Assembly (NCBI GenBank): GCA_963668625.2
Contig: CAXXKA010000008.1
Coordinates: 32,001 to 96,000, forward strand
Source of the DNA: an uncultured candidate division Zixibacteria bacterium
Lineage (GTDB): Bacteria; Zixibacteria; MSB-5A5; UBA10806; 4484-95
DNA length: 64,000 nt
Direction: 5' to 3'
Below the pieces are notes generated by a model that saw only the letters and a list, made by a program, of their open reading frames with translations, was not told the DNA's origin and searched no databases. Position numbers and translations under genes: made by a program. Below, piece after piece: positions 2,263-28,271 of the stretch (position 1 is its first letter; the number at the start of each line of letters is the position of its first letter).

Positions 2263-2697
2263 ATGGATTATCAAATAAAATTATTAGATATTGAGGATTA
2301 CAAAAGCATTACTCGATTATGGCAAAAATGCGGTCTATCTTTCAGGCCGAGCGGAAGAGATTCTAAAGACTCGATTTCTATTGAGATGAAACGTGCGGAA
2401 ACCGGATTTATCGGGATGTTCGATCACGACAATCTCATCGGTTTAGTACTGGTCACATCTGATGGCAGAAAAGGTTGGATCAACCGTCTGGCAATCGATC
2501 CAAGCTACCAGAAACAGGGTCTGGGCAGCATCTTGATAGTCGAAGGCGAACGTTTCTTGCATCAACTTGGCATCAAGGTAATAGCGGCCTTGATCGAGGG
2601 TGAAAATAAACCATCATTTGCCACTTTCAAAAAAGCCGGCTATGTATTCCACGAGAATATAGTTTATTATTCTAAAAGAAACTCGGTTGAGGATTAG
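2263..2697 (+). CDS. GNAT N-acetyltransferase (YpeA-like)
   Basis: DGRKGWINRLAIDPSYQKQGLG acetyl-CoA motif; RBS GGAG. Confidence 0.85.
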   Translation: MDYQIKLLDIEDYKSITRLWQKCGLSFRPSGRDSKDSISIEMKRAETGFIGMFDHDNLIGLVLVTSDGRKGWINRLAIDPSYQKQGLGSILIVEGERFLHQLGIKVIAALIEGENKPSFATFKKAGYVFHENIVYYSKRNSVED

Positions 2698-10100: not shown

Positions 10101-10361
10101 ATCGGCCGGAAACGACCGTTGTATTTCTTCCCGAAAACCTCATTCAAGTACGCCGGCGGTATATTCAAAAGCGGTAAAGTGGAACAGGCAATCAAAAGCG
10201 CGGCCGGTAAGTGGTACGGTTCGGACTACAGCCGAGGCGAGGGCCAGGACCCGTATTACAGCCGATGTTTCAATAGCCTTAATTTCGCCGACAGTGATTT
10301 TCGCGAGACAGCGGAAACCGTATTTATACCGATGCTCGAGGCGACCGAAAAAATATCATGA
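7131..10361 (+). CDS. recC: Exodeoxyribonuclease V gamma subunit
   Basis: SNKLE, IIVQSLGMARWL, LADLFDQYSIYRP, NPCSEYW, PMRSIPF, FLEAILSARQRLYISY. Confidence 0.95.
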   Translation: MPGLNLFTSNKLEILLAKLADRYVLIHQKNALIPETIIVQSLGMARWLSLRMADKIGICANLNYPFPNTFIDSVFESIIPEHDKQSYPNTDTNIWKIYNIIKENRPENEFGAVRMYLEDDSDGLKAYQLSTHLADLFDQYSIYRPEMVLNWDSNRPENWQAIIWSELLRNSDCDHRAILFKRFFDSVRTGSFNPKNLPDRISLFGVSFLPPIYINFFHELSNLIEIDFYVLNPCSEYWSDILSEKEAARFVGASGDSDISREDLHITVGNSLLASMGKQGRDFLFLTADFPIQPTFEQPGEDTLLHSIQSDILNLRNRGSDDNEPGEISAGDDSIRIHVCHSEMREIEVLHDQLLDHLEHDRSLKPRDIIVMAPDIERYTPFIQAVFGNPENREHHIPFTIADRGAKGESGVIKTFFEILDLIGGRYALSEIVSVLESEAVHSKFDLSIRDIELVSRWLTEVKVRWGRDAEHKRDLDLPRYEQNTWRFGLDRLILGYAMTGERERIYENIMPYDNIEGEQAIRLGKFLDFTDKLFEYLEKIQTDKTLPEWADCLASLCVDIFDSNDNTEYEIQNLLRKIRKLAMLSENSGFNRKVSHRIMKQYLSDQLGKHSSASGFIAGSVTFCSMLPMRSIPFKTICLIGMNNSAFPRQAKHYSFDLIANKPKLGDRSVRHTDRYLFLEAILSARQRLYISYTGQGVTDNNTIPPSVTVSELLDYIRDGYSLDGKPADQHIRTYHKLQAFSHDYYEPNSKLYSYSNENYLAAKSLLDSRVDIPEFFSDPLPAGDDNEKIVDLDGLCRFFANPSKYILNNRLGIYLDQSESALEDEEPYDLSGLDRFHLANDLLECRLRGEDIEKRLRLARCDGVLPHGAIGDILLGKINAATTPVVREIKKLTGGSPLPPIEIDIESGGYKITGIIDNIYKPGLINYKAWSISEKDRITGWLKLLALALMNIPEYPAKTILIGSEETLVLNKPDNPDLILSKLIRLYDIGRKRPLYFFPKTSFKYAGGIFKSGKVEQAIKSAAGKWYGSDYSRGEGQDPYYSRCFNSLNFADSDFRETAETVFIPMLEATEKIS

Positions 10362-13300
10362 TAAAAGAATTCGATCTACTCACGGTGCCTCTCGAGGGCG
10401 CTAATTTAATCGAGGCCGGGGCCGGTACCGGCAAAACATACAGTATAACCGGTTTATATATTCGCCTGCTCCTGGAGGCCGAGTTGACTGTCGACCGGAT
10501 ACTGGTCGTGACATTTACCGTAGCCGCCACCGAGGAATTAAAGCATCGCATAAGAACAAAAATCATCGAGGCGATAAAGGCGATGAAAACCGGCAGATGC
10601 CATGAGGATCGAACACTGGAGGAACTCACCAGAAAATATACCGATCGGCCGAGCGCAATAGACAAACTGGAACGCTCGTTACGGCAATTCGATGAGGCCG
10701 CGATATTCACCATTCACGGTTTCTGCAGCAGAATGTTGAACGATTATACTTTCGAAAGCAATACCTCGTTCAATACCGAATTCATAAGCGATCAATCAAG
10801 CCTCCTTAATAGAACGGTGTTCGATTTCTGGCGTAAGTATGTCGGTGGAAAGTCGGCGCTGTTTCTCAACTACCTGCTTGGCAAGGATGGCGATAAACTA
10901 AACACACCCGACAAACTGGTTAAACTGGCGGGCAAATTATACTCCCGCCCGTTCCTGAAAATCATCCCCGAAACCGAATTCCCTGACACCTTAAAGTTAG
11001 AAAGCAATTTCCTCGAGGATTTGGAAATCGTTCGCATCGAATGGCAGACCGGCCGTAGCCAGGTGGAGGATATACTTTTAAATCATGAAAGCCTTCACCG
11101 CGCGAAGTACAAACAAACAAGCATACCCAAATGGCTGGCGTCTATGGATATCGCCCTGGCAGCTGAACCGCCGTCCCCGGCAATGTTCAAAGAGTTCGAG
11201 AAATTCACCGCCGGTATCCTTAACTCATCGCTTAAAGGGAAAAATCCGGATCGAATTTATCATACCTTCTTCGAAAAATGCGAGCAATTGAACATCAGCC
11301 GTACCTCGCTTGTAGAGGCATACGATACGACCGTGCTGGCGATTAAATCAGGCATATATCGATATATCAAAAACGAGTTATCTTTAAAAAAGAAAGAGGC
11401 CAACGTTCAATACTATGATGATCTCCTGTTGGCTTTCTACGATTCGTTAAACAGCTCGCATGGCAAACATCTGACACGAATGATAAGAAAAAGATATCAG
11501 GCGGCTTTAATCGATGAGTTCCAGGACACCGATCCATTGCAGTATGGTATTTTCAAAACCATTTTCAAGGATGAGCAATGCATACTGTTTCTAATCGGCG
11601 ATCCCAAACAGGCTATTTACGCGTTTCGAGGCGCCGATATATTCGCTTACCTGGATGCTGTCAACGAGGTCGATAATCGTTACACGTTGTCTGTCAACTG
11701 GCGTTCGCAGCCTGATTTTCTTAGCGCTTTAAACGCTATATACGAACATATCGACAGACCGTTTATTTACGAGGATATTCCATACTTACCGGCGCGACCG
11801 GCAAAACCCGATTCCGGCAAAATTCTCAAGCTTTCGGGCGTTGCTAATCCGCCGCTCGAGTTGTGGTACCTCGACTCGCGTAACCTGGGCCAACATCACA
11901 TTTACCGTGGTATGATCAGTAAGAACTCGGTATTGGAATTCATGGCCGAATCCGTGACCGCCGAGATTTCCCGCCTGCTTACACTGGCCGACAGCAACGA
12001 GGCGTTGGTGGAAACCAGGCACATAAAGGCAAACGATATCGCCGTCCTGGTGCGTACCAACAGCGAGGCGGCCATCATAAAGAACTCTCTGGACAAACAC
12101 AACATTCCGGGCATTCTCTACAGCGATAAAAGCGTATACGCTACAGATGAGGCCATTGAGCTTTTGAGAATCATAACGGCGGTTGCCGAGCCGTCCCGTG
12201 ACGGTTACATCAGGGCCGCTCTCAGCACTACGATATTCGGATATAGCTCCACGGATATGTTTATACTCAACAGTGATGACGATCTCTGGGAAAGTATCCT
12301 GGCGGAGTTCCGGAAACTCAACGAGCTCTGGCGCGAATACGGTTTTATGAGTATGTTCCGTGACCTGCTGACCCGGTATAAAATCAGGTCAAGAATATTG
12401 AGATATACAGGCGGTGAGAGACAGCTTACGAATATCCTTCACCTGGGAGAGCTAATTCACGGCCATAGCGCTCAATCCAATCCGGGTATACCCGCCATAG
12501 TGAAATGGTATAAAAACCAGATCAGCCCCGATCAGCCAAATAGCGAGGATAGCCAGCTTCGTTTGGAAAGCGATGATAACGCCGTCAAAATAGTTACGAT
12601 TCACAAAAGCAAAGGCCTGGAGTACGATATAGTTTTCTGCCCTTTTGCCTGGGGAAACTCCAGGGTTACCAGATACAGGAATGTTCTGTTTCACGATACG
12701 GATAATAATAACGAGTTAATCCTCGACCTCGGTTCGGAGTCTTACGAGCCTAACAGATCGCGAGCGGAGTTGGAAATTCTGGCGGAAAATACTCGCCTTT
12801 TGTATGTGGCCCTGACAAGAGCTAAACATAGATGTTATCTAGGTTGGGGATTATTCAATACCGCCGGCAGCTCGGCTCTTGCCTATACTTTCCATCAACC
12901 GGTTTTGAACGACCTTAATAATATCGTGGATGAAGTCGAGGCGGCCTTTATCGGCATGGATGACAACACCGCGCTTACGGCTCTAACCGGTTTGACGGAA
13001 CACTCGATGAATTCGATCGATTTAAAGATTCTCCCCGGGCAGCCTGCCAAAACATATAAGCCGATAATCGAGAGCATACGGCAATTATCACCTAAAACAT
13101 TTACCGGCAAAATTAACAGGCAATGGCGTATCTCGAGTTTTTCCAACTTGAGCGCCGGGAAAAGCCATCACCCGGACTTACCGGATTATGATTCGTTATC
13201 ACCGGGATTCGACCAACCGGACATGGAAAAATCAAAAGGGGATGAGAAAAATATATTCACGTTCCCGAAAGGCGCCCGCGCCGGTACTTTCTGTCATGAG

Positions 13301-14005
13301 TTATTCGAGAATATCGATTTCCGGTCCATACGGGATGATTACACTATTGATTTGATAGTTGACAGACTCAAGCGATATGGTTTCGATACCGATTGGCAGG
13401 GTACCATACACGGTATGATAGAAAATACGCTCAATGTCAGCTTGAGTGATCATGACAGTGAATTCAAGCTGTCGGGGATAGATAGCAGCGGCAAATTAAA
13501 CGAGCTTGAGTTTCATTTCCCCCTCAACAAAATTTCATCGAATATATTAAACGACTTCTTTACGAAGCACGGCCAGAATTCGGCTGAGACAATGACCGAG
13601 GCTAACTGGCGAGATTTGAATTTCCAACCGGCCGAGGGATTCCTGAAAGGTTTTATCGATCTGGTGTTCGTTCACCGGGGACGGTATTACCTATTGGACT
13701 GGAAATCTAACCATCTGGGGAACGACCGCCAATTCTACGACCGGGAAAACATTTCCAGGGCGATGATAGAGCATAAATACATTTTGCAATACCACCTTTA
13801 CACCGTAGCTCTGCATAAGTATCTATCGGTAAGGTTGGAAAACTACGATTACGAACGCGATTTCGGCGGCGTGTATTACTTATTCCTCAGGGGGATCGAT
13901 AGCTCCAGCAGGGATGGCAACGGTATATTCTACGATAAACCATCATCGCGAACGATAAACGAGCTAACCTCGATACTAATACCGGGGGAAAACAACGATG
14001 AATAA
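10358..14005 (+). CDS. recB: Exodeoxyribonuclease V beta subunit
   Basis: Walker A EAGAGTGKT, DEFQDTD, GDPKQAIYAFRGAD, TIHKSKGLE, nuclease GFIDLVF...DWKSN; ATGA overlap with recC. Confidence 0.95.
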   Translation: MIKEFDLLTVPLEGANLIEAGAGTGKTYSITGLYIRLLLEAELTVDRILVVTFTVAATEELKHRIRTKIIEAIKAMKTGRCHEDRTLEELTRKYTDRPSAIDKLERSLRQFDEAAIFTIHGFCSRMLNDYTFESNTSFNTEFISDQSSLLNRTVFDFWRKYVGGKSALFLNYLLGKDGDKLNTPDKLVKLAGKLYSRPFLKIIPETEFPDTLKLESNFLEDLEIVRIEWQTGRSQVEDILLNHESLHRAKYKQTSIPKWLASMDIALAAEPPSPAMFKEFEKFTAGILNSSLKGKNPDRIYHTFFEKCEQLNISRTSLVEAYDTTVLAIKSGIYRYIKNELSLKKKEANVQYYDDLLLAFYDSLNSSHGKHLTRMIRKRYQAALIDEFQDTDPLQYGIFKTIFKDEQCILFLIGDPKQAIYAFRGADIFAYLDAVNEVDNRYTLSVNWRSQPDFLSALNAIYEHIDRPFIYEDIPYLPARPAKPDSGKILKLSGVANPPLELWYLDSRNLGQHHIYRGMISKNSVLEFMAESVTAEISRLLTLADSNEALVETRHIKANDIAVLVRTNSEAAIIKNSLDKHNIPGILYSDKSVYATDEAIELLRIITAVAEPSRDGYIRAALSTTIFGYSSTDMFILNSDDDLWESILAEFRKLNELWREYGFMSMFRDLLTRYKIRSRILRYTGGERQLTNILHLGELIHGHSAQSNPGIPAIVKWYKNQISPDQPNSEDSQLRLESDDNAVKIVTIHKSKGLEYDIVFCPFAWGNSRVTRYRNVLFHDTDNNNELILDLGSESYEPNRSRAELEILAENTRLLYVALTRAKHRCYLGWGLFNTAGSSALAYTFHQPVLNDLNNIVDEVEAAFIGMDDNTALTALTGLTEHSMNSIDLKILPGQPAKTYKPIIESIRQLSPKTFTGKINRQWRISSFSNLSAGKSHHPDLPDYDSLSPGFDQPDMEKSKGDEKNIFTFPKGARAGTFCHELFENIDFRSIRDDYTIDLIVDRLKRYGFDTDWQGTIHGMIENTLNVSLSDHDSEFKLSGIDSSGKLNELEFHFPLNKISSNILNDFFTKHGQNSAETMTEANWRDLNFQPAEGFLKGFIDLVFVHRGRYYLLDWKSNHLGNDRQFYDRENISRAMIEHKYILQYHLYTVALHKYLSVRLENYDYERDFGGVYYLFLRGIDSSSRDGNGIFYDKPSSRTINELTSILIPGENNDE

Positions 14006-15827
14006 AAACGTATTGAATATATTGAAAGAACAGGGCGAGATATCCCCCATAGACTACCATTTCGGACGTTTCATAACCAGGTTAAGCAACCATGATGACT
14101 CGATGTTGGCGGTGATATCGGCAATAGTCAGCCGCGCGACCCGGGAGGGTAATATCTGTACTGATTTAAATAATATAGCCGGCAGCGAGATAGTGCCCGG
14201 TCAAGAAATCAAGTTGCCTGAAATTGACATCCTGAAAAAATTATTGATCGACTCGGGTCATACAGGCGCTCCCTCCGAATACAAACCGTTGATTCTGGAT
14301 ACTCGAAATAGATTATACCTGTACCGTTACTGGCATTATGAAAATTCGCTGGCGGAAATTATCGTAAGGTTATCCTCATCGAATGACCCGGCTATCGATT
14401 CGAAAAAATTGAAAGAATCGCTTGAACGGTTATTCGGCCGAATAGATCGGAATGATTTCAATTATCAGCAATTGGCTGCTTTCACCGCCCTAACCAGGAG
14501 ATTCTGCGTAATAACCGGCGGGCCCGGTACGGGCAAAACCACTACGGTCGCCGCCATACTGGCCTTACTCTTGCAACAAGACAGTTCCCTGCGAATCGCC
14601 CTGACCGCGCCAACCGGCAAGGCCGCCGCTCGTTTACAGGAGTCTATCAAAAATTCGATAGAGTTGTTGAATTGTGAACAGGACATTAAAGATATAATTC
14701 CCCGTCAAGCCTCTACCACGCATCGCCTTTTAGGCAGCATACCCGACTCGCCTTATTTCAGGCATAACACGGATAACCGTTTGCCGTACGATTTGGTTAT
14801 CGTGGATGAGGCCTCGATGGTGGATCTGCCGCTTTTAGCCAAACTTGCCTATGCCCTGAGAGATGATTCTCGTCTGATACTTATCGGTGATAAAGACCAG
14901 CTTGCCTCGGTGGAATCAGGCGCGGCCCTGGGGGATATCTGTTCGATATCGTCCCGGGCAGGCATAACTAAAACGTTTGCCGAATCGTACGAAAAGACAA
15001 CCGGCCTGCAAATACCGGCAGGAGATGATACTCCCCGAAAATCCTCATTGAGCGATTGCATTGTTGAATTGAAGAAGAGTTACCGATTCGATAAATCAAG
15101 CGGAATCGGAGAGTTGAGCCGCGCGGTTAACGAGGGCAGGATTGAAATCGCGGATAGTATCCTTCGGGGTGATAACTATAACGATTTGCACTGGTCGGAA
15201 TTACCACCAATCGGGCAACTTGCGGAATCAATCAAACAAAGCGTCCTCGATCGATACTCGATATATCTTCAAAGCCGGGAGCCGCGTGAAATTCTCGATC
15301 TGTTCGGTGAATTTCAGGTACTATGTGCCGTTCGGGAAGGGCCTTATGGCGTTTCCAATATCAATCGATTAATAGAACTCATCCTTCACCGGGCGGGAAA
15401 GCTGGATGCAAAGGAAACCTGGTATCGGGGCCGACCTGTCATGATACTCCGGAACGACTATCAACTGGGGCTGTACAACGGCGATATCGGTATCACCCTG
15501 TCGGATAACGATAATCCTGATACACTCAAAGTATATTTCCCCTCTCAGGATGGCGAACCGCGTAAGTACTCGCCCATTCGTCTCCCCGACCACGAGACCG
15601 TGTACGCCATGACAATCCATAAAAGCCAGGGTTCGGAATTCGATAAAGCCCTGTTGATTTTACCCCATATTCAATCGCCTTTACTGACCCGCGAACTGGT
15701 ATATACGGGCATTACCCGCGCCAGGTCGCGCCTGGATATATGGTCGAATATTGAAATAGTCAAATATGCAGTTGAACAAAAGGTATCACGCGAATCGGGA
15801 CTTTTAGATAAACTTCTGAATGACTAA
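13998..15827 (+). CDS. recD: Exodeoxyribonuclease V alpha subunit
   Basis: GGPGTGKTT, APTGKAAARL, VDEASMVD, GDKDQLASVE, TIHKSQGSEF, YTGITRAR. Confidence 0.95.
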   Translation: MNKNVLNILKEQGEISPIDYHFGRFITRLSNHDDSMLAVISAIVSRATREGNICTDLNNIAGSEIVPGQEIKLPEIDILKKLLIDSGHTGAPSEYKPLILDTRNRLYLYRYWHYENSLAEIIVRLSSSNDPAIDSKKLKESLERLFGRIDRNDFNYQQLAAFTALTRRFCVITGGPGTGKTTTVAAILALLLQQDSSLRIALTAPTGKAAARLQESIKNSIELLNCEQDIKDIIPRQASTTHRLLGSIPDSPYFRHNTDNRLPYDLVIVDEASMVDLPLLAKLAYALRDDSRLILIGDKDQLASVESGAALGDICSISSRAGITKTFAESYEKTTGLQIPAGDDTPRKSSLSDCIVELKKSYRFDKSSGIGELSRAVNEGRIEIADSILRGDNYNDLHWSELPPIGQLAESIKQSVLDRYSIYLQSREPREILDLFGEFQVLCAVREGPYGVSNINRLIELILHRAGKLDAKETWYRGRPVMILRNDYQLGLYNGDIGITLSDNDNPDTLKVYFPSQDGEPRKYSPIRLPDHETVYAMTIHKSQGSEFDKALLILPHIQSPLLTRELVYTGITRARSRLDIWSNIEIVKYAVEQKVSRESGLLDKLLND

Positions 15828-15830
15828 AAC

Positions 15831-15861
15831 ACGAAAGCCGCCATGTTCGAGCGGCTTTCGT
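15831..15861. terminator. Hairpin between convergent genes, probable bidirectional terminator
   Basis: ACGAAAGCCGC-N9-GCGGCTTTCGT perfect 11-bp stem just after the recD stop. Confidence 0.7.
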
Positions 15862-15946
15862 ATTCGTCAGTGGTTATTCCCCCAAGCTTACGATTTGATT
15901 TTCTTCTATTTTGAATCCTTATTAGACTTAGTTGCAAGTCCTCCCG

Positions 15947-16510
15947 TTAATCCGATATCGCGTACTTGCTGAAATGGTTGATAAGGAAACTCGCCTTACC
16001 ATCTATTACTCTCGAGTAACCCTGCAATACCCAGTCCTCAACCTCGGGATCGTAGTAGTGCAGCTTTACCAGTTTCGCGGACGGATTTATATCGGCAACA
16101 TCGAACTCCAACGTGGCCGGCGAGTCAAATACTAACCCGGACGGACCGAATTCGAATACACCGGTCACCTTCCTGTCGAGAATTTCCTTCTTGTAACAAA
16201 TCGTGATATTGACATCATCCTTAATACCTAACGCCGGCACCTTGAATTCATGCCTTATACTGGATGTTTGAATGGCAACCACGCCACCACTCGATGCCGA
16301 CACTATATTGGCAACATCAACAGCAACGTTAAGATCGGATAATACCGCAGTACGAGTGTCCAATACGCCTACCGGCTGCTTGGCTAAATCGGGAGTTTCC
16401 TGAGTATCGGGGCCGAACGGAGTTTCACTCGAACATCCCGCAATAGCCAGTACCGCTGCCAAAGAGACGACTATCCACATGCTTCTCAAACTCGTTAACT
16501 TTCTTCCCAT
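15947..16510 (-). CDS. Lipoprotein with ZU5-like domain
   Basis: Lipobox IAGC; GG...VP...EFGPSGLVFDSPATL...W...NHFSKY; RBS AGGAGG. Confidence 0.7.
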   Translation of the reverse strand: MGRKLTSLRSMWIVVSLAAVLAIAGCSSETPFGPDTQETPDLAKQPVGVLDTRTAVLSDLNVAVDVANIVSASSGGVVAIQTSSIRHEFKVPALGIKDDVNITICYKKEILDRKVTGVFEFGPSGLVFDSPATLEFDVADINPSAKLVKLHYYDPEVEDWVLQGYSRVIDGKASFLINHFSKYAISD

Positions 16511-16580
16511 TTATTCCTCCTTCGAGGGTTTCAATTTCGTTTTGCTTTTCCGGTTTTTCTTTTTAACTGACTCATAACGA

Positions 16581-16596
16581 TGCATATTTCAAGCCA
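16581..16596 (-). promoter_or_regulatory. Candidate sigma54 -24/-12 promoter
   Basis: Minus strand TGGCTTGAAATATGCA: GG-N10-GC, ~70 nt upstream of the lipoprotein ATG. Confidence 0.5.
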
Positions 16597-16697
16597 CCCA
16601 TAAGGATTTTACTGAAAACCGTATATTTCGTTGTTATTCAATAAGATAGAAAAACTTATCCGATTAAATGTTGATTTTTATCTCTAAAAAAAGTAAG

Positions 16698-16727
16698 GGA
16701 TACTTCCCACAATAGTGGGACATATCC
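16698..16727. promoter_or_regulatory. Palindromic candidate enhancer (UAS)
   Basis: TCCCAC-aata-GTGGGA flanked by GGATA/TATCC, ~110 bp upstream of the sigma54 box. Confidence 0.35.
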
Positions 16728-17035
16728 AATAAATACAGAGTAATATATATATTACATCACTACTGTCCGGCCTTTCCATCTCGTTGCGATACGCTGCTTC
16801 GCAACGTGGCTTTTTTGCCGGCAAAATGCGCGCTCTACATGACTCAAGAAGGTTTCCAGGCGGCGCTTGGAAACCAGGGAACTAAGCCTAACATCGACAG
16901 GACATGTCAGGATGCATGATACGCTGAATATATAATTATATCGGAAAATATCTTTTACTGACAATTTTAAAGAGAAGTTTAAAATTTACCGAAAAACACC
17001 GGATACCTATGATACTGTTTTAATAAATACGAGTA

Positions 17036-20000
17036 TTAACGGATTCGTTCGGATATCTTTTCGCTTTTATGAGTATTCATTATATGATTGCGATAAGAAA
17101 TCAAAACCTCTTGCAGACGTTTATGATAGGCGGTAAAAATCCTGAATTTGTCATCCCCCAACTCAGCTTTTATGCGCTCGAAATAAATTTTAACTTTTCC
17201 GGAAAGTTTTGGCGAAACCGATTCGCATAATCCTGCCGAGTTTAATAATGTAAATAATTCAATGGCCAGTATCGCTTGATCGCTTTTTATGGCTTTTCTA
17301 AGATACGCATTGGCCAGGTTGACAGTTTTCTTCATTTCCCCTTTGATTAACCAATAGGCAATCTCGAATTTACCTAATTCTATATCAAGTTCAGGATAGT
17401 CCGAAAGGCTGTCGTTTTTTTTGATTTTGCGGATAATCTCTATAGCTAACTCGACATCACCGTTAAAAAAAGCAATCATCCCGGAATAAATCATGGTTTT
17501 AATCTCTAACTCCGTAGAACCAATGGCCCTGGCATCCGAGATGAGCACGTCCAGATCCTCATTCGAGGGCTGACCGGAGAAATAAGCCATACGCAAAAGT
17601 CGAATTTTAGATTCGAGTATAAACTCATCATCTTTCAAATCCTGCGCCCGGTTAAACGCCTCAGTAAGGTAACCGCTAGCCTTTTCGGAATCACCCATAC
17701 GATAATACAGGTTGCCCAAATCGCCATAGGTAAACGCCAAACTGTGATGGTCGCCAATCTTTTCGAATATTTCTTTGGCGTCCTCGAGACGTTTTTCGGC
17801 TTGTGCTAAGAATCCGCGAGTCAGCAAATTGGTACCCAGATTGGCACAAGCCGAGGCCCGCATCCTGGCGGCTCCAATACGCTTGAATATACGTTCGGCT
17901 TTCTCGTACGATTTCTCCGCCTGGTGAAGTTTGCCCATCTCATCACTGATAATACCCAGGTTATTCGTAACTTTGGACTGACCGCTAAGATCTTTTAACT
18001 TGCGATATAATTTCAACGCCCGGGTATAGTACTCGGCCGACTCCTGCATCTTGCCCAGCCCCCAGTGACAGATACCCAGGTTGTTGTATACGATTGCGGT
18101 CAACTCGGGATTGATATCGTAATTCTCGCAAATATCCAGAGCTTTTAACAGGTATGTGCGGCAGTCTTGAAGCTTGCCGCCGCGCCGGGTTATCTCACCT
18201 CTGCCGTTAAGGCAAAACACCTGGATTTCCAAATCATCCGGCAGGATACCCTCTAAATTTTCGATCGCCGTAAGAGCTTTATCATAATTAGAGGTTAATC
18301 TGTTTAACTCGGATATTTTCATCAACGCCAGGGCCCTGAGTTTGGCGTCATCACCGGAAAGCTCGATCAGACGTTCGTAATCGCTTTCGGATTGTTTGTA
18401 TTCGCTAATGTGCTTGGCTAATTCCCCCCGGCTTCGTATGGCCTTAATCAAGTATTCCTTGTTGTCCAGGTCCTCGGCTATCTCGATTGTTTTCGCGAAA
18501 AATCCCAGAGCCTCCGCGTTAGCGAATTCGGAGGCGGCTTTCTCCCCGGCAAGGAATAGATAAGGCAAGGCTTTTTCAGGCTTGCCCGCCAGCAAATAGT
18601 GGCGGCCGGGCAGTTCGGGATCGCGCTTGACATAACGTTTACGGCCGGCGAAAAACTCGGCGGTTTTAAGGTGAAGTATCTGGCGTGAGGAAAATGACAG
18701 CCCGTTATAGGCAACCTCCTGAGTGAGTATATGCTTGAATATGTATTCCACCACCGGCTGTGTGCGCTCAACCGGGGTCAAATCGAGATGCGTTAACTCA
18801 TCCAGGTAATCGCGAAGCTTTCTCTTCCTGTTACTATCCGGGAAGACATCCTTGAGTACGTTATAGGCAAACACCCTCCCGATAACGCTGGCGGTACGAA
18901 CGGTCTTTTTAACCATCTCGCCCAGGTTATCGATACGAGCGGTTATTACCGATTCGATACCGGTGGGGATATTTTCACCGGAGGAGAATTTATCGGCGCC
19001 AAGCTCTAAATAAGCCTTGGCCATTTCCTCCAGGTAAAACGGGTTGCCGCCGGATTTCTCGATGACGTTTTTAATATTCTCCTCGTTCGGAACGAGACCG
19101 TCGAGGATTGTTATGAACAGTTTGCGCGAATTCTCCGGTGTCAGGCCCTTTAGCTCTATTGATTCGGTTCGTTTATGCTCTTTCAGGAAATCGAATACTT
19201 TCCCCGGGCGGCTTATGAACATAATACCCGGCGAGTATCCTGATTCGAGTAATTCTTTTATAATAGTCAAGGATGCCTCATCGATCCATTGGACGTCCTC
19301 GACAATAAGTATCATTCGCGACTTATCGCTTTCACGACATAGTATATTTATGACTATATCGTTGATCTTTTTCCGTTTGATATCCTCCGGCAAATTGCGT
19401 AACTGCGGTGGTACTGTCGGAAAGAAATCCAGGAGCGGTGCGATCAACGGCAACCACTCGTTCTCCGAGATATCTTTCAATGATTCTGCCAGGGCCTGGC
19501 GTTTGCTCTTTTGAGTGGAACGTGAGTCCAAACCCAGAGCGCCCAGCAATATCGATTTTAACGGGATAAACGGAGTACTTTGAGAATGTCTGAAACAGTC
19601 GCCCTCGATATAGCGCGAACCGCTGTCGACTATCATCCTCTTTATCCTGCCGGTTATCAGAGATTTTCCGGCTCCGGGTTCGCCTGATATCAGAAGCGCC
19701 GAACGTTTACCGCTGTTGACACTCTCGATGAACGCTTTCGCCCTCTCGAGCTCATCCTCGCGGCCAATTATAAGTTCCCCGACACTCGATGACTGGGTTT
19801 TCTCCTTTACGAGGTAATTCAATTGAATCGGTTTCTCTTTGCCTTTCACCATTACTGTATCACCCTGACGGGTTACGAAATTTTCACCGCATACCTTAAG
19901 AGTATCCTCTCCCACTATAGAATCACCGTAAGCGGCTTTACCCATCAAACGGGCCGCCAGGTTGATAGCATCCCCCATTGCGGTGTACTCGTGACGGCTT

Positions 20001-21100
20001 TCGCCACCGACATTACCCACGAAACATAAACCGGTATTCACACCATAGCGATGCTGTACCGGGTGCGCCAAATCCTGGTTCAGCTTTTTCAATGCGAACT
20101 CTATCTCGAGTATCGCCTTCAGGCAATTTTCGGCATCTTTGCCGGTGCTTAAAGGCGCGCCGAAAAAGATTAACATCTTCTCCGAGGAACCGCTCGAGTC
20201 CAATCGGGCAAACGCCCCGCCGTGCCTTTCGATAATATCGTTGATCACCGTAAAATACCTGTTTATCGGCTCTATGGATTTCTCCAGATCGGCCTCCAGG
20301 TTTTTACGAAGGGAGTTAACCCCGATGAAAAGGTTGGTCAGTACGCGATGTTCTCCCTCTATGCTACCATCGCTAAAATGAAGTTGATTTTCCAAACCGC
20401 TTACCAGAAAATCCCTGACCGTTTCTGATTCCTGTTTTCTCAGGTCATTCCCCCTTGAAGACTCATCAATACCGGGCACATCATCGAAATTATCGAAAAC
20501 ATAGCAATCATCTTTCAATCTTGATATATCCGCGAGACCGAGCTTAGAAGCGGCGCTTTCGGTTAAGGCCAGCTCTCCTAGTTCTGCAACATCCGCGGCC
20601 GCGTAACAGTTTTCGACCGTTTCGCCGCAGAAAAGATGTTCACGGCGTTTTTCGCCAAGCTGCAAGTTGTATATTTCGCCGTCACTGATACCGGTATGAA
20701 TCCCCAGCGAGAATTTGCCGACCGGCGTCGTTATCTGCCCGTTCTCCGATATCCATTTTATCAGGTTACCGGCGCAATCGTAGGCTCTATTGATTGAATC
20801 ATCCCCGGAGAAATATGCCAGGAAAGCATCGCCGCCAAACTTGATAACATCCCCATCCAACGCGAATACACGCCCCAGGAGTGAATTGAAGCAGGCGTTC
20901 ATTATCTCGGCCAGTTTCTCGCCACCCAACCGTCCCAGCGAGGCCAATTTCTCCGACATCGCGGTGAAACCCGAGAGATCGGCAAACAGCAAACTGCCGG
21001 AAATAATCGTATCCTGCTTTCTCTTGCCATCCTCGACAGTATGGTTTAACAGGAGATCAGGAATATAGGGCTTGATGAATTCCAACGACGCTTTGTTCAT
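17036..21100 (-). CDS. Class III tandem nucleotide cyclase (soluble adenylyl cyclase-like C1+C2) fused to STAND ATPase and TPR repeats
   Basis: C1 FADLSGFT and KFGGDAF; C2 EYTAMGDAINLAARL; Walker A GEPGAGKS, Walker B IVEDVQWID, GGNPFYLEE, FKHIL; C-terminal NNLG-type TPRs. Confidence 0.9.
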   Translation of the reverse strand: MNKASLEFIKPYIPDLLLNHTVEDGKRKQDTIISGSLLFADLSGFTAMSEKLASLGRLGGEKLAEIMNACFNSLLGRVFALDGDVIKFGGDAFLAYFSGDDSINRAYDCAGNLIKWISENGQITTPVGKFSLGIHTGISDGEIYNLQLGEKRREHLFCGETVENCYAAADVAELGELALTESAASKLGLADISRLKDDCYVFDNFDDVPGIDESSRGNDLRKQESETVRDFLVSGLENQLHFSDGSIEGEHRVLTNLFIGVNSLRKNLEADLEKSIEPINRYFTVINDIIERHGGAFARLDSSGSSEKMLIFFGAPLSTGKDAENCLKAILEIEFALKKLNQDLAHPVQHRYGVNTGLCFVGNVGGESRHEYTAMGDAINLAARLMGKAAYGDSIVGEDTLKVCGENFVTRQGDTVMVKGKEKPIQLNYLVKEKTQSSSVGELIIGREDELERAKAFIESVNSGKRSALLISGEPGAGKSLITGRIKRMIVDSGSRYIEGDCFRHSQSTPFIPLKSILLGALGLDSRSTQKSKRQALAESLKDISENEWLPLIAPLLDFFPTVPPQLRNLPEDIKRKKINDIVINILCRESDKSRMILIVEDVQWIDEASLTIIKELLESGYSPGIMFISRPGKVFDFLKEHKRTESIELKGLTPENSRKLFITILDGLVPNEENIKNVIEKSGGNPFYLEEMAKAYLELGADKFSSGENIPTGIESVITARIDNLGEMVKKTVRTASVIGRVFAYNVLKDVFPDSNRKRKLRDYLDELTHLDLTPVERTQPVVEYIFKHILTQEVAYNGLSFSSRQILHLKTAEFFAGRKRYVKRDPELPGRHYLLAGKPEKALPYLFLAGEKAASEFANAEALGFFAKTIEIAEDLDNKEYLIKAIRSRGELAKHISEYKQSESDYERLIELSGDDAKLRALALMKISELNRLTSNYDKALTAIENLEGILPDDLEIQVFCLNGRGEITRRGGKLQDCRTYLLKALDICENYDINPELTAIVYNNLGICHWGLGKMQESAEYYTRALKLYRKLKDLSGQSKVTNNLGIISDEMGKLHQAEKSYEKAERIFKRIGAARMRASACANLGTNLLTRGFLAQAEKRLEDAKEIFEKIGDHHSLAFTYGDLGNLYYRMGDSEKASGYLTEAFNRAQDLKDDEFILESKIRLLRMAYFSGQPSNEDLDVLISDARAIGSTELEIKTMIYSGMIAFFNGDVELAIEIIRKIKKNDSLSDYPELDIELGKFEIAYWLIKGEMKKTVNLANAYLRKAIKSDQAILAIELFTLLNSAGLCESVSPKLSGKVKIYFERIKAELGDDKFRIFTAYHKRLQEVLISYRNHIMNTHKSEKISERIR

Positions 21101-21109
21101 AATCGTTTA

Positions 21110-21454
21110 TCAATAAATAAATATTCGATACACGTATAAAATTGCCAGATGTAAAAATTGATCGATATAATACATCTGTTTGGAACCGTTGGCATAACGG
21201 CTCTTAAAGAAATCCTGAAGCCAGTGCTGGATGTAAAGTCCTACGAGAAACATAAAAGTAGCGGTTCTTAAAAATAATCCCGGCTCGTAAAGAAATGAGT
21301 GAAAGATCATGAATATCCAGATAGTCAGGATATAAACAAGAACATGATACGAAAGTACACCTCTGGATGAGCCTTTATTAGCCGCCATATAATCGGTCTG
21401 GAAAGCATAATCACCGGCAATGTGACCCAGTATAAGAAAAAATAGTATGTCCAT
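21110..21454 (-). CDS. DUF3307 family membrane protein (start revised to ATG 21454)
   Basis: GHIAGDYAFQ, YH, HWLQD, DQFLH motifs in hydrophobic helices. Confidence 0.8.
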   Translation of the reverse strand: MDILFFLILGHIAGDYAFQTDYMAANKGSSRGVLSYHVLVYILTIWIFMIFHSFLYEPGLFLRTATFMFLVGLYIQHWLQDFFKSRYANGSKQMYYIDQFLHLAILYVYRIFIY

Positions 21455-21458
21455 AGTG

Positions 21459-23072
21459 CTAAGCGTATTGCAGCATGCTGCTATCGGGTTTGACCGGGAA
21501 CGATATCGTGAACATCGCGCCGCCATCCGGGAGGTTGGCAGCCTCGACCCTGCCGCCATGGCTTTTGATTACACGCTTCACCGCCAGAAGTCCGAAACCG
21601 TGCCCTCTCTCCTTGGTGGTAAAATGCTGTTTAAACACCCTGTCATAGCTGTCCTGGTTCAAACCTACTCCGTTATCGATCACCGATATAGCCACTGTCT
21701 TGGTTTCATCATCGTATTTAGTCCGTATCGTTATCGTCCTATCACCCTCATTAGCCGAGGTCGCATCGGCGGCGTTGTTCAGAAGGTTCAACAGCGCCTG
21801 CTGTATCTGGCTCTTATCGGCCGTGACTATCGGCAAATTCTCCTGGAATTCGCATTTGAATTCGACTTCATCGAAACGATTTTGCGGTTTGATAAAGAAC
21901 AGCTCGTTATCGAGGAAATTGTGAAGATCGAATTCCTCTTTCTTACTGGCGGGGCGGGAATACATCATCAAACCGTCGGTGAATCTCGTAATTTTATCAA
22001 GACCGTTTTTCATGGACTCTATCTTAGCCTCAGCCTTATCGGTTTTGCCTATGTTAAGCTCCATTTGCAGTAGTTCCAGGTTACCCAGTACGATAGACAA
22101 GTAGTTGTTCAACTCATGTGCAATCTCGGCCGCCATCTCACCACGAGTAGCCATTCGCTCCAGGAGTATCATCTGGCGCTCTACATTCTTCTCCTCTGTG
22201 ACATCCCGGCCCATGTAAAGTGTTGCGAATATCTCGTTCTGGTCATCGAATACCCTGGCGCCTACGAGTTCCACGAACAGTTTGCTGCCGTCCGACCTTT
22301 GGGTAAGGATATCTCCCGCCCAGGTATCGCCCATGGCAATCGATTTCTCCATGTCCTCTAGCAATTCCTGATGAATAGAATTGGCGAACAGGGCGTCCAC
22401 CGGCTTCCCGGCCACATCCTTGAACTGCCTGCCGAACACTCCACGCGCGGCCTCGTTGAATATGAAAATGCGACCGTTCTTATCGGTGACTATTATGAAA
22501 AATGTCGAGGCCGAAATAATCTTTTCTAAAAATTTATTGGCCGAAAGAAGGCTCTGGTTGGAGCTTTCGAGTTTATCCGCAGTCTCTTTCAATTGCATGT
22601 TGGTCGTTTCGAGTTGCTTGTTTTTCTGCTCCAGGTCGTGAATCATCTGCAGATCTGATTGACGAAGCCGCGAGGACATCACGCCTAAAACATCCAGGGC
22701 AATTTGTGGATTTTTCAATATAAGTTCATTGAATTTAGCTCGCGAAAGTTCAAGCACTACACATTTGCCGACCGCCTTGGCGCTGGCAAATCGTGGTGAA
22801 TCCTCCAAAAGAGACATCTCGCCGAAAAAATCCCCCTGACTACGCATCGCCAGGCGAACCTGTTTGCCCGACTCATCCTCGGATTTTAAAATCTCGATCT
22901 GACCGGATTTGATTATATATATACTTGTCCCAGTATCACCCTCTTTAAACAGAATCTCGCCATCCGACAGATTCAGTTCCTGCACTGCATCCCCAAGGGA
23001 ATTAAAGATATCCTCGGAAATTCCGGTAAAGAGTGGTACTTTTTTTAGAAGAATCTTTGTAGTTTCAGTCAT
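21459..23072 (-). CDS. Cyclic-nucleotide-binding domain + PAS + NtrB-like histidine kinase (start taken as ATG 23072; ORF track starts at 23114)
   Basis: cNMP domain FKEGD...IKSG...GDFFGEMSLLEDSPRFASA; H-box AHELNNYL; NLLNNAADA, DNGVG, GHGFGL; no TM. Confidence 0.9.
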   Translation of the reverse strand: MTETTKILLKKVPLFTGISEDIFNSLGDAVQELNLSDGEILFKEGDTGTSIYIIKSGQIEILKSEDESGKQVRLAMRSQGDFFGEMSLLEDSPRFASAKAVGKCVVLELSRAKFNELILKNPQIALDVLGVMSSRLRQSDLQMIHDLEQKNKQLETTNMQLKETADKLESSNQSLLSANKFLEKIISASTFFIIVTDKNGRIFIFNEAARGVFGRQFKDVAGKPVDALFANSIHQELLEDMEKSIAMGDTWAGDILTQRSDGSKLFVELVGARVFDDQNEIFATLYMGRDVTEEKNVERQMILLERMATRGEMAAEIAHELNNYLSIVLGNLELLQMELNIGKTDKAEAKIESMKNGLDKITRFTDGLMMYSRPASKKEEFDLHNFLDNELFFIKPQNRFDEVEFKCEFQENLPIVTADKSQIQQALLNLLNNAADATSANEGDRTITIRTKYDDETKTVAISVIDNGVGLNQDSYDRVFKQHFTTKERGHGFGLLAVKRVIKSHGGRVEAANLPDGGAMFTISFPVKPDSSMLQYA

Positions 23073-23216
23073 AAACAATGCTCCAACAGTTAAATTATCG
23101 ACAAGATCGGACATTGATTAAGCTTTCGGAGCAAAAGAGTTGCATGAATTTGTTGACAGGAAGATAAATATGGAACATTTTGAAACTGCCGGGAGTTGTT
23201 TCCCCATTGAGGAGAT

Positions 23217-26239: not shown

Positions 26240-28018
26240 TCAATTTCCGCTAATCGTAACAGCATCCCTCACAGCATCCTCGCCCCCTATGGCTGTGATA
26301 AACGCCCAGGCAGCGGCATCCCCCATCGAGTTATCCGTAATCTGCGCCAGCCCGTTTATGGCATATCCGGTGGTTGCGCTTATATCCAAGTTGTGAAGGC
26401 CGGTGATATCGGTCAACCTGGTGTTGCCTCTTATCCACAGATGTCCATATCCCAGTTCCAGCCCTATCTCGCTCAGATGACTTAAGCCATCGATATTTTC
26501 CAGGTACCAGTTGTTGTGGATATCAAGGCTGCCGCCCATGTATGTCAGACCGCTAAGATCATCCAGATCGGTAAGGGCATGGTTTTGAAGCAGCCGTACA
26601 TTGCCATGCACATAATAGAGACTGCTTAAGGCCGAAATATCGTGAAGAGCATGGCAGTCCTCTATATAGAGATACTTACAACTGGTTATATGAGCCAGGC
26701 CGTTTAATGTCTGCAATTCGGGATTATACCACAGCGATATACCGCCTTCAACGATGCCAAGGCCATTTAAACCCTGCAGCGAGGATAGCCGGGTGTTATA
26801 CTGAATCGAGATACCTTCATCACCGACTACAGCGAGGTGTTCAAGATGCTCCAGAGTGGTCAGCGTATCGTTGTAGACAATATCAAGCCCGCCTACCCGG
26901 ACGACATTCAGGCCATCCAGAGTGAGTAGAGCGTCATTGTTGTTTATCTCCAGTTCGCCAACAACTGTGGTAATTCCCTCTAGGCCATTCAAGCTGGTGA
27001 GGTTTCCACAGGCTCCTACATTCACGTAGTCAACCACGCCGCCGATACCCTCCAGGCCCGTAAGCGAGTACAGCCCCGAACAACTGTAGATATCAACCGC
27101 GCCGGCCGAGGCAATTCCATTAAGCCCGCTAAAATTAATAAGAGAACTTAAATACTGTGCTTTAAAAATCCCACCAATCGAAACGAAATTCGGAAATACA
27201 AAACTTTGAACGGAATCACCTCGAATATCAAAATCCCCACCTACGACCTCAAGTGATGGAAACTCAATCACAGGCATAAAGTCATCGTAAATTGAAAAAT
27301 CCCCATTGACAGTTTTCAACTCGGACAGCCCATCACCGAAATCAAGCGATGAATTACCCTCGCTGTAATCAATCAACAAGCTACCGCCGATCCATTCGAG
27401 ATTGTTCAGGCCGGTTAAATCGGTAAGCATATAGTTAGGATTAATTGTTAAATCACCGGTAATCCCGGTGTACTGGGAATACGTGCCGATATCGCCGGTC
27501 GAGTCAATTGTGACATCGCCATTATAAATAGTACCACTGTGTCCTACTATGCCGTAACTGGAGAAACCGCTAATCTGGCAGGTAACGAACGAGGAATCCT
27601 CGATTACCGCATAGGGAATTATCGGCTGCCAGGAGTTCTCCACCGCCTTGTGTATGCCCAGCGTAGCCTCATCAACACCATCGGGGACATTATTTATATC
27701 GTAGCGAATAATTAAAGTAACAGGCAGGCTAAATATCATATCATCGGGGCCGAACTGATAGCAAGTACTCGATACCAGTCCCGGATCGTCGGGGTGATTA
27801 CTTTCCACACCAATCGTGATAGTAGTATCGCTATCAACAGCATCGGCCGGGATAATAAGAGTTATTACTGTATCAGCCGTGGTAAACGTACCACCCGCGG
27901 ATGTTATAGTAAATGATTCGAGATTCTCCTCCGGCGAGGTGGAATCGCTGCCGCAACCCACGATTATAAATGCCATACTCAGGATTAACATTAATAAAAT
28001 CACAAAACACTTATTCAT
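26240..28018 (-). CDS. Lipoprotein with ZU5-like domain followed by receptor-L/LRR-like repeats
   Basis: RBS GGAGAGG before ATG 28018, lipobox IVGC, FGPDDMIFSLPVTL...GFSSY, many LxxLxGLxxxxxVxGxLxIxxN repeats. Confidence 0.8.
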   Translation of the reverse strand: MNKCFVILLMLILSMAFIIVGCGSDSTSPEENLESFTITSAGGTFTTADTVITLIIPADAVDSDTTITIGVESNHPDDPGLVSSTCYQFGPDDMIFSLPVTLIIRYDINNVPDGVDEATLGIHKAVENSWQPIIPYAVIEDSSFVTCQISGFSSYGIVGHSGTIYNGDVTIDSTGDIGTYSQYTGITGDLTINPNYMLTDLTGLNNLEWIGGSLLIDYSEGNSSLDFGDGLSELKTVNGDFSIYDDFMPVIEFPSLEVVGGDFDIRGDSVQSFVFPNFVSIGGIFKAQYLSSLINFSGLNGIASAGAVDIYSCSGLYSLTGLEGIGGVVDYVNVGACGNLTSLNGLEGITTVVGELEINNNDALLTLDGLNVVRVGGLDIVYNDTLTTLEHLEHLAVVGDEGISIQYNTRLSSLQGLNGLGIVEGGISLWYNPELQTLNGLAHITSCKYLYIEDCHALHDISALSSLYYVHGNVRLLQNHALTDLDDLSGLTYMGGSLDIHNNWYLENIDGLSHLSEIGLELGYGHLWIRGNTRLTDITGLHNLDISATTGYAINGLAQITDNSMGDAAAWAFITAIGGEDAVRDAVTISGN

Positions 28019-28271
28019 ATTCCTCTCCAAAATTATATGGCGAATCGCCACGTGAATTAGCAGGGTTCATAGGAGCCCGTATTTTAAATATTAATAAAGT
28101 AAAAATTGAGGTTTGATGTCAATACAATTCAGTTTATTAGATGTATAATAATTGTATGGTAGAACGGAAGTTAATCTGAGCTATACAGCTATAATCTCCT
28201 AAACAAAAATAGAATTAAATATTTTAAATAATATGTTAACATTATGGGAAAATTAAATAGCCCGTTCAGCT

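Follow-up and report, generated by a model that had tools for sequence, protein, structure and literature searches.

A three-gene operon conserved across Zixibacteria joins a predicted soluble-adenylyl-cyclase-like enzyme, a putative cyclic-nucleotide-binding histidine kinase and a DUF3307 protein

Class III nucleotide cyclases in which two tandem cyclase domains (C1 and C2) are followed by a P-loop NTPase and TPR repeats in one chain include human soluble adenylyl cyclase (sAC; ADCY10; PDB entries 4clf, 4cm2 and 4oya) and the bacterial sAC-type enzymes. Cyclases of the sAC type are bicarbonate sensors, with K95 and R176 making up the bicarbonate site of sAC. Bacterial cyclase-ATPase-TPR proteins also include those of the Mycobacterium tuberculosis Rv0386 type and TIGR03903, a TOMM kinase/cyclase fusion, and two further arrangements are relevant here, namely the Pycsar and Avs anti-phage systems and the pairing of SatD with a DUF3307 (SatE-like) protein. 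We analyzed a 64,000-nucleotide stretch of DNA from an uncultured candidate division Zixibacteria bacterium (the whole stretch is referred to as the window), and describe a three-gene unit, or trio, that encodes an sAC-like cyclase-STAND-TPR protein, a small DUF3307 protein, and a histidine kinase with a domain predicted to bind cyclic nucleoside monophosphates (cNMPs).

The window cyclase has the single-chain layout of human sAC and retains the equivalents of D47, K95, D99, T405, N412 and R416, but its family differs from sAC in having an invariant Arg in place of Lys334 and Tyr or another non-basic residue in place of R176, and its gene shares an operon with a cNMP-binding kinase and DUF3307. 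TIGR03903 likewise joins a cyclase to AAA_16 and TPR regions and is the best NCBIfam match to our protein (residues 247-991, 1.4e-50), but we rejected membership of that family, since the match scores 172 bits against a cut-off of 705.75; unlike the TIGR03903 and Rv0386-type proteins, the window cyclase has no kinase or helix-turn-helix fusion and contains two cyclase domains rather than one. The SatD/DUF3307 pair also places DUF3307 beside a protein with a class III cyclase fold, but the partner in the window is a true tandem cyclase with a STAND-TPR part, a cNMP-binding kinase is added, and the DUF3307 protein is a short form (114 aa) that lacks the C-terminal extension seen in forms of 225-250 aa; SatD (PF16264) was not found among the nine open reading frames (ORFs) scanned around the trio with Pfam. 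Pycsar and Avs resemble the trio in that a class III cyclase, a cNMP-binding protein and a STAND-TPR sensor occur at one locus, but the window locus has no TIR or pore effector and no defence island, shows a vertical pattern of inheritance, and has a histidine kinase as its output. Clustering of writer, reader and eraser genes is seen at the cyaD1-clr-spdA locus of Sinorhizobium meliloti, where a cyclase, a Crp-type reader system and a phosphodiesterase gene lie together (PMC4222275), and SpdA, a soluble enzyme, is a class III phosphodiesterase with 2',3'-cNMPs as its substrates. This locus shows that a phosphodiesterase gene can accompany a cyclase gene, but DUF3307 is a predicted membrane protein unrelated to SpdA. 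We therefore class the trio with neither Pycsar nor Avs, and it is also distinct from the SatD/DUF3307 pair, with which it has DUF3307 in common.

The trio consists of three co-directional ORFs on the minus strand of the window, between positions 17036 and 23114, with only 4 nt between the kinase and DUF3307 genes (21455-21458) and 9 nt between the DUF3307 and cyclase genes (21101-21109). The genes, and the domains that Pfam places within them, are as follows.

21459 to 23114, minus strand: cNMP-binding/PAS histidine kinase, predicted soluble, 551 aa, alternative start at 23072 (Pfam)
About 22713 to 22973, minus strand: cNMP-binding domain of the kinase, followed by a coiled linker
About 22188 to 22532, minus strand: PAS domain of the kinase
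About 21951 to 22145, minus strand: HisKA domain of the kinase
About 21489 to 21818, minus strand: HATPase_c domain of the kinase
21110 to 21454, minus strand: DUF3307 (PF11750) protein, 114 aa, N-terminus MDILFF (Pfam, AlphaFold2)
17036 to 21100, minus strand: sAC-like cyclase-STAND-TPR protein, 1354 aa (Pfam)
About 20516 to 21004, minus strand: C1 domain of the cyclase
About 19811 to 20353, minus strand: C2 domain of the cyclase
About 19229 to 19768, minus strand: AAA_16 NTPase of the cyclase protein
About 17039 to 18523, minus strand: TPR region of the cyclase protein

These coordinates agree with the original prediction, made from the sequence alone, in which three co-directional genes were reported 4 and 9 nt apart, and every motif that it named was found in the translations. 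The position at which it began the kinase, 23072, is an internal Met codon on the minus strand; the ORF extends to 23114, and either start is possible. A longer, 149-aa DUF3307 ORF that overlaps the kinase was also considered, and is not backed by the orthologues. The observation of a three-gene unit is confirmed, and the interpretation that was placed on it is partly supported.

Comparison of 285 genomes of the phylum Zixibacteria showed that the trio is conserved. There are 23 close relatives of the DUF3307 protein in the protein collection, one of them named as candidate division Zixibacteria, and a scan of one genome per species returned 26 DUF3307 loci. At all 24 loci with 40-69% DUF3307 identity, tblastn recovered the order kinase, DUF3307, cyclase on the same strand, as far as the contig allows; the kinase is present at 23 of the 24 and the cyclase also at 23, with both misses (L016 and L024) at contig ends, and a few nucleotides separate the gene ends in these related loci. 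The remaining two loci (L026 and L027), which are from other phyla and show 28-30% DUF3307 identity, are without both kinase and cyclase. The recurrence of this gene order at 24 of 24 loci far exceeds chance. Across the phylum, DUF3307 is present in 90 of the 285 genomes (70 of the 198 high-quality genomes, 47 of the 130 genera), with one match per genome and an identity that declines with kinship, from 65-69% within the genus to 36-55% within the class. When coordinates were compared by eye for the 87 strong DUF3307 matches, a tandem cyclase was found immediately downstream in 85, the other two being at contig borders (e.g., in G268), and a cNMP-binding domain was found 1.4-1.7 kb upstream in 83, with three of the four misses at contig starts. 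DUF3307 is retained between kinase and cyclase across approximately 20 families, and the absence of the trio from other genomes, which the original prediction had named as grounds for giving it up, is not what we observe. One variant, in G074, has a cyclase-AAA_16-TPR gene followed by a divergent DUF3307-like gene.

The genes flanking the trio are conserved only in the locus from the same genus; the other loci have differing housekeeping genes there (among them MFS, Sir2, thiolase, ribonucleotide reductase and phosphofructokinase), with no receiver domain and no recognizable defence genes in the flanks of the related loci. Since there is one match per genome and its identity tracks taxonomy, the pattern is that of a vertically inherited operon, and not of a mobile island. 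This distribution bears on whether the trio could be an anti-phage system of the Pycsar/Avs type, in which the STAND part would sense a phage protein, a cNMP would serve as the alarm, and abortive infection would be carried out by DUF3307, by the kinase or by both. Such a system would fit the STAND-TPR architecture, the weak matches in PADLOC between the cyclase and PycC models (best 2.7e-14) and between the kinase cNMP-binding domain and Pycsar effector models (1.1e-14), and the frequency of DUF3307 in large phages (66 phage records and virus-rich Atlas clusters). However, the PADLOC matches are generic and at the level of domains, with none for DUF3307; DUF3307 is single-copy, with an identity that falls with kinship as in vertical descent; the flanks are housekeeping genes rather than a defence island; the cyclase is the only class III cyclase detected in its genome; and the output is a phosphorelay kinase without a killing domain. 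We consider an anti-phage role highly improbable, and the resemblance to Pycsar/Avs logic drawn in the original prediction is unsupported, given the vertical-looking inheritance, the housekeeping flanks, the generic PADLOC matches and the lack of a killing effector.

On balance we favor, with moderate confidence, the reading that the trio is a vertically inherited, housekeeping cyclic-nucleotide signalling operon of the phylum Zixibacteria. In the mechanism that we propose, the AAA_16 NTPase and TPR part would sense a cytoplasmic ligand or partner and activate the N-terminal C1-C2 pseudo-heterodimeric cyclase, which, judging from its residues, would make a 3',5'-cyclic nucleotide. The nucleotide would then bind the cNMP-binding domain of the kinase, as the residues of that domain suggest, and alter autophosphorylation, with the phosphoryl group passing from the kinase to a response regulator that would be encoded elsewhere. 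Comparative genomics suggests that DUF3307 would be a genuine third component of this circuit.

The predicted writer of the signal gives Pfam matches to Guanylate_cyc in two stretches (1.3e-17), AAA_16 (2.2e-21), TPR_12 (1.8e-34) and TPR_MalT (7.4e-14). The closest solved relatives of its N-terminal 435 residues are human sAC structures, and both C1 and C2 align to human sAC with an E value of 5.8e-59 using a profile of 23 orthologues. In this alignment the metal-binding Asp residues of C1, D41 and D91, fall on sAC D47 and D99, and K87 falls on K95, while in C2, T373, N380 and R384 fall on T405, N412 and R416. The functional roles of the catalytic, base-side and transition-state residues of sAC (T405, N412, R416) are those established in the sAC literature. 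Residues D41, K87, D91, R299, T373, N380 and R384 are invariant in 23 of 23 cyclase sequences. The Walker A (GEPGAGKS) and Walker B (ILIVEDVQWID) motifs of the NTPase are intact in the window protein, as is Walker A in 19 of 21 orthologues. With these residues conserved, the cyclase looks catalytically competent, which fits its assignment as the writer in the original prediction, and cyclic AMP (cAMP) is the most likely product because of the closeness to sAC and the retention of the Thr, Asn and Arg positions. The gene is the sole Guanylate_cyc match in a genome that is 95.9% complete, other cyclase classes not having been searched.

The predicted reader matches cNMP_binding (3.6e-23), PAS_9 (1.2e-15), HisKA (2.5e-7) and HATPase_c (1.3e-22) in Pfam. 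Its phosphate-binding cassette (PBC) is FFGEMSLLEDSPRFA and its H-box is EIAHELNNYL. The kinase segment FGEMSLLEDSPRFA aligns on the PBC of PKG, PKA and SthK, and in the PDB sequence matches to PKG, PKA, SthK and CRP the kinase FGE...PRFA has its Gly-Glu and Arg at the canonical PBC positions. The GE and R of the PBC are kept in 22 of 22 kinase sequences, as is the His of the H-box, and the N, G1 and G2 boxes are conserved among the orthologues; the residue that follows the PBC Arg, in the motif usually read as R-[ST]-A, is Phe in 20 of the 22 and Ser in the other two. By these motifs the protein is an ordinary HisKA kinase with a canonical predicted cNMP-binding input, and the conserved ligand-binding residues fit its earlier assignment as the reader. 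Three further ORFs with cNMP-binding domains are encoded elsewhere in the genome, and the cyclase probably serves more than the trio kinase; because of these three ORFs and the single detected class III cyclase, the description of the module as self-contained is too strong, and we regard it as doubtful.

As the original prediction stated, there is no response regulator in the operon, in that Pfam identified no receiver domain in the trio or its immediate neighbors among the nine ORFs scanned. On another contig (locus L074, G000:C10:464500-469500), three consecutive genes encode a protein of 709 aa with HEAT repeats, a cNMP-binding protein of 141 aa that stands alone, and a receiver of 160 aa with no other domain; many genomes of the phylum have this receiver, at 71-85% identity. 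The receiver was considered as a partner of the kinase and rejected, since its orthologues are present in 69 of the 285 genomes with a distribution that does not follow the trio.

The third protein matches DUF3307 in Pfam at 5.2e-15 (56 bits, against a cut-off of 23), is single-copy in its genome, and is assigned to PF11750 alone, with no NCBIfam and no PADLOC family. The motifs described originally are H11xxxD15, H37, H77xxxD81 and D98QxxH102. Among 93 diverse members of the family, H11, D15, Q19, K27, H77, D81, D98 and H102 are invariant, and H37, Y41, A24 and Q99 are nearly so, such that the conserved set includes three Asp, all invariant, and four His, of which H37 is the nearly invariant one. 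The family has 1575 members at E<=0.001 in a profile search of 1.84 billion representatives, of which approximately 10 are in the close subfamily. An AlphaFold2 model of the window protein (mean predicted local distance difference test score, pLDDT, 95.4) has four long hydrophobic helices and a short helix at residues 21-26, from which we confidently predict a four-helix integral membrane protein. By the helix boundaries of the model, the conserved His and Asp would lie toward one end of the bundle, together with the loop residues K27, K84, R86 and K92, and by the positive-inside rule this end is probably cytoplasmic.

In the ESM Atlas, all of the clusters retrieved were DUF3307 clusters, at least half of which are viral, and DUF3307 relatives were found in 66 phage records, mostly of large Vibrio, Enterococcus and Acinetobacter phages. 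The two phage contexts that we inspected, in KVP40 (L072) and ME3 (L073), have mostly hypothetical genes around DUF3307. Longer forms of the protein (225-270 aa) are extended at the C-terminus by a segment in which Pfam recognizes no other domain, and the form in the window is the short one. Our literature search found no function for DUF3307, and met the term in a phage genome annotation.

We surveyed the neighborhoods of the family in a Chloroflexota sample (DUF3307 in 13 of 151 genomes, 14 loci) and an Actinomycetota sample (10 of 201 genomes, 12 loci), with extended flanks read for 14 regions. This survey, which the original prediction had proposed, backs the link between DUF3307 and cyclic nucleotides with independent neighborhoods in two other phyla: 12 of these 26 loci are linked, with nine adjoining cNMP-binding proteins (Crp-type, stand-alone or cyclase-fused), one following a cyclase-AAA_16-TPR gene and two following SatD, and the PBC Glu and Arg are kept in all nine cNMP-binding neighbors. 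In the Chloroflexota, five of six loci with long-form DUF3307 adjoin a Crp-type cNMP-binding regulator, two of these also with an EAL gene, and at one Crp-linked locus a tandem cyclase-AAA_16-TPR gene (1336 aa) on the opposite strand ends approximately 100 nt after DUF3307. In the Actinomycetota, three loci (L049, L051 and L056) from small genomes (1.4-1.8 Mb) contain, in this order, a cNMP-binding-cyclase fusion, a stand-alone cNMP-binding protein and long-form DUF3307, with MobB and UPF0047 genes coming after DUF3307 at L049 and L051. Another locus has two stand-alone cNMP-binding proteins and then DUF3307, with a cyclase approximately 2 kb upstream, and at a further one a zinc-ribbon-cyclase-AAA_16-TPR_MalT gene (1162 aa) ends 25 nt before DUF3307. 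SatD precedes DUF3307 at two of the 12 Actinomycetota loci, in keeping with the association stated in the original prediction, and three of the 12 have no cyclase, cNMP-binding, SatD or carbonic anhydrase neighbor.

The description of SatD as a protein with a cyclase fold also holds for our SatD model (pLDDT 94.5), the N-terminal half of which matches class III cyclases in Foldseek, with Rv1900c as the top match (E 1e-4, probability 1.0); of the 48 matches at E<=0.001, most are to cyclases, GGDEF domains and Cas10 palm domains. By sequence, SatD gave no PDB match and an hhalign probability of 0.1 against the cyclase.

The same neighborhoods bear on a different arrangement of the circuit, in which DUF3307 would be a membrane input that senses metal, pH or redox state, recruits the STAND-TPR cyclase (or else the PAS kinase) to the membrane, and so governs from upstream how much cNMP is made. 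Neither kinase nor cyclase has a Pfam match to a membrane domain, and DUF3307 abuts cyclase-AAA_16-TPR genes in three ways: it precedes the cyclase gene in the window, follows it in G074 and in one genome of the Actinomycetota, and converges with it in one of the Chloroflexota; its other neighbors are the soluble regulators SatD, Crp and PadR. This arrangement leaves the frequent cNMP-binding and cyclase-fold partners unexplained, however, and the stand-alone cNMP-binding neighbors better fit a role downstream of the nucleotide, so that we judge a membrane input unlikely.

Several observations weigh against the signalling operon that we favor, or against parts of it. In the cyclase, the position of the base-contacting Lys334 of sAC is occupied by R299, which is invariant in 23 of 23 sequences in the profile alignment, and the position of sAC R176 is Tyr in the window and Tyr, Phe, His or another non-basic residue in the orthologues. 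Because of the invariant Arg, we leave the nucleotide base uncertain, and neither the substrate base nor bicarbonate control is readable from the cyclase sequence. This replacement, together with a PBC that reads R-F-A in most kinases, would be expected if the pairing of writer and reader were wrong in detail, with the kinase domain answering another ligand, or the cyclase making a non-canonical product such as cyclic CMP, cyclic UMP or another nucleotide. However, the cyclase retains the Thr, Asn and Arg residues found in sAC-type adenylyl cyclases, the Gly-Glu and Arg that define nucleotide-binding domains of this type are invariant, and the kinase and cyclase genes remain paired across the phylum, a paralogous pair included, and we find such a mispairing rather improbable. 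The cyclases at two loci of one clade (L018 and L019) have degenerate Walker motifs, A and B both being lost (EPEADVRR for GxxGxGKS), though the trio is retained there, and no response regulator can be assigned to the kinase from the 75 receiver domains in the genome.

Other such observations concern DUF3307 itself. The structure prediction and fold search proposed for it were run, and they gave no enzyme match: in a Foldseek search of the PDB the model found nothing at E<=0.001 (best E 1.1), VIA-align returned only generic helical bundles with Z values of at most 8.3, the best being a designed protein, and there was no structural match to a solved hydrolase, channel or transporter. In G245, a paralogous cNMP-binding kinase (514 aa) and a tandem cyclase-AAA_16-TPR protein (1357 aa) are encoded 100 nt apart without DUF3307 (L029, G245:C9:56000-66000), in a genome that also carries the full trio. 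Outside the phylum, 14 of the 26 loci have no cyclase or cNMP-binding neighbor, and the family is therefore not exclusively tied to cyclic nucleotides; as the genomes are related, the 12 linked loci may equal only approximately 4-6 separate events. Of the eight Chloroflexota loci with short-form DUF3307 (104 aa; L039-L046), six are beside an O-antigen-ligase-like (Wzy_C) gene, and four of these six also have a BrkB-like gene on the other side, a context that points to the cell envelope and not to nucleotides. At two Actinomycetota loci (L033 and L055), short DUF3307 lies directly after a beta-carbonic anhydrase gene, a neighbor that is notable because sAC-type cyclases sense bicarbonate. Both loci are also beside a Pta-like (AAA_26, DRTGG) gene. 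As there are only two such loci, and they are related, we record the carbonic anhydrase neighbor as anecdotal.

The unlinked loci, with their Wzy_C-type and BrkB-type neighbors, and the kinase-cyclase pair of G245 would be accounted for if DUF3307 were a passenger, i.e., a small membrane enzyme that works in envelope or lipid metabolism, came to be held between two signalling genes in this lineage, and acts outside the cNMP circuit. This is difficult to reconcile with its retention between both genes, with gaps of a few nucleotides, in all of those families of the phylum, and with its independent association with differently built cNMP-binding partners in two other phyla, and we regard a passenger as decidedly improbable.

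Within the signalling operon that we favor, several roles can be proposed for DUF3307. It may, tentatively, be a metal-dependent hydrolase that turns over the nucleotide (an eraser), because its seven conserved His and Asp suit a binuclear site and phosphodiesterase genes cluster with cyclase loci. A membrane effector controlled by the nucleotide or by its receptor is a possible but doubtful role, put forward because the stand-alone cNMP-binding neighbors need a target, and we are similarly doubtful that DUF3307 does something else or has no direct role. The membrane input to the soluble cyclase or kinase, considered above, is a slightly less likely role within this operon. A broader proposal, which we offer as speculative, is that DUF3307 could be an unrecognized family whose members sit within the membrane, depend on metal, and serve cyclic-nucleotide signalling specifically, either as enzymes or as effectors, for example as a new class of cNMP phosphodiesterase or a receptor-controlled executor. 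Its members would be paired interchangeably with class III cyclases, SatD, and Crp-type, stand-alone or kinase-fused cNMP-binding proteins, and would be carried by large phages to tamper with host nucleotide signals.

The surroundings of the trio in the window are made up of RecB/RecD-like helicases on one side and a PHP/ATP-grasp pair on the other (Pfam), and scans for promoters and terminators within the operon gave nothing informative. The neighboring features are as follows.

15947 to 16510, minus strand: ORF187, a predicted lipoprotein with a signal peptide and the lipobox IAGC, outside the core unit (from its translation)
7131 to 15827, plus strand: three overlapping large ORFs, the last two encoding UvrD/RecB-like (1215 aa) and RecD-like (609 aa) helicases, and probably a RecBCD operon
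2694 to 6905, minus strand: a 1403-aa ORF with a receiver domain at 2745-3077, which matches 12 related loci by tblastn
26240 to 28051, minus strand: a 603-aa ORF with weak Pfam matches to ZU5 (2.8e-4), Receptor-L (4e-10) and EndoS-LRR (3e-7), a combination unusual in a bacterium

Of the related loci, only L002, from the same genus, keeps the helicase region beside the trio. ORF187 matches no Pfam family and no NCBIfam family, and is separated from the stop codon of the cyclase by 525 nt, within which a promoter-like site lies at 16964-16935; relatives of ORF187 were found by tblastn downstream of the cyclase at eight of the 24 loci at E<=1e-5, and at seven at E<=1e-8. In L002, the cyclase gene is followed by a tandem array of three ORF187-like lipoprotein genes (14632-16895).

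The three-gene combination was put forward as one not known from any described system, and our literature search likewise found no description of the trio, nor of cNMP-gated kinases in the phylum. We know of no characterized bacterial cNMP-gated histidine kinase, and none was found in the literature search. The logic of a cyclase with a cNMP-binding reader is already known; the novelty lies in a third component that is conserved with them and is tied to cyclic-nucleotide genes across phyla. The operon provides a clean, conserved setting in which to ask whether cAMP or another cNMP feeds a phosphorelay, and it also bears on how the bacterial sAC-like STAND-TPR cyclases are activated and on the function of the widespread DUF3307. 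That DUF3307 recurs in three phyla next to cyclases, regulators with a cyclase fold and cNMP-binding proteins offers an initial clue to the function of a family that large phages also commonly carry.

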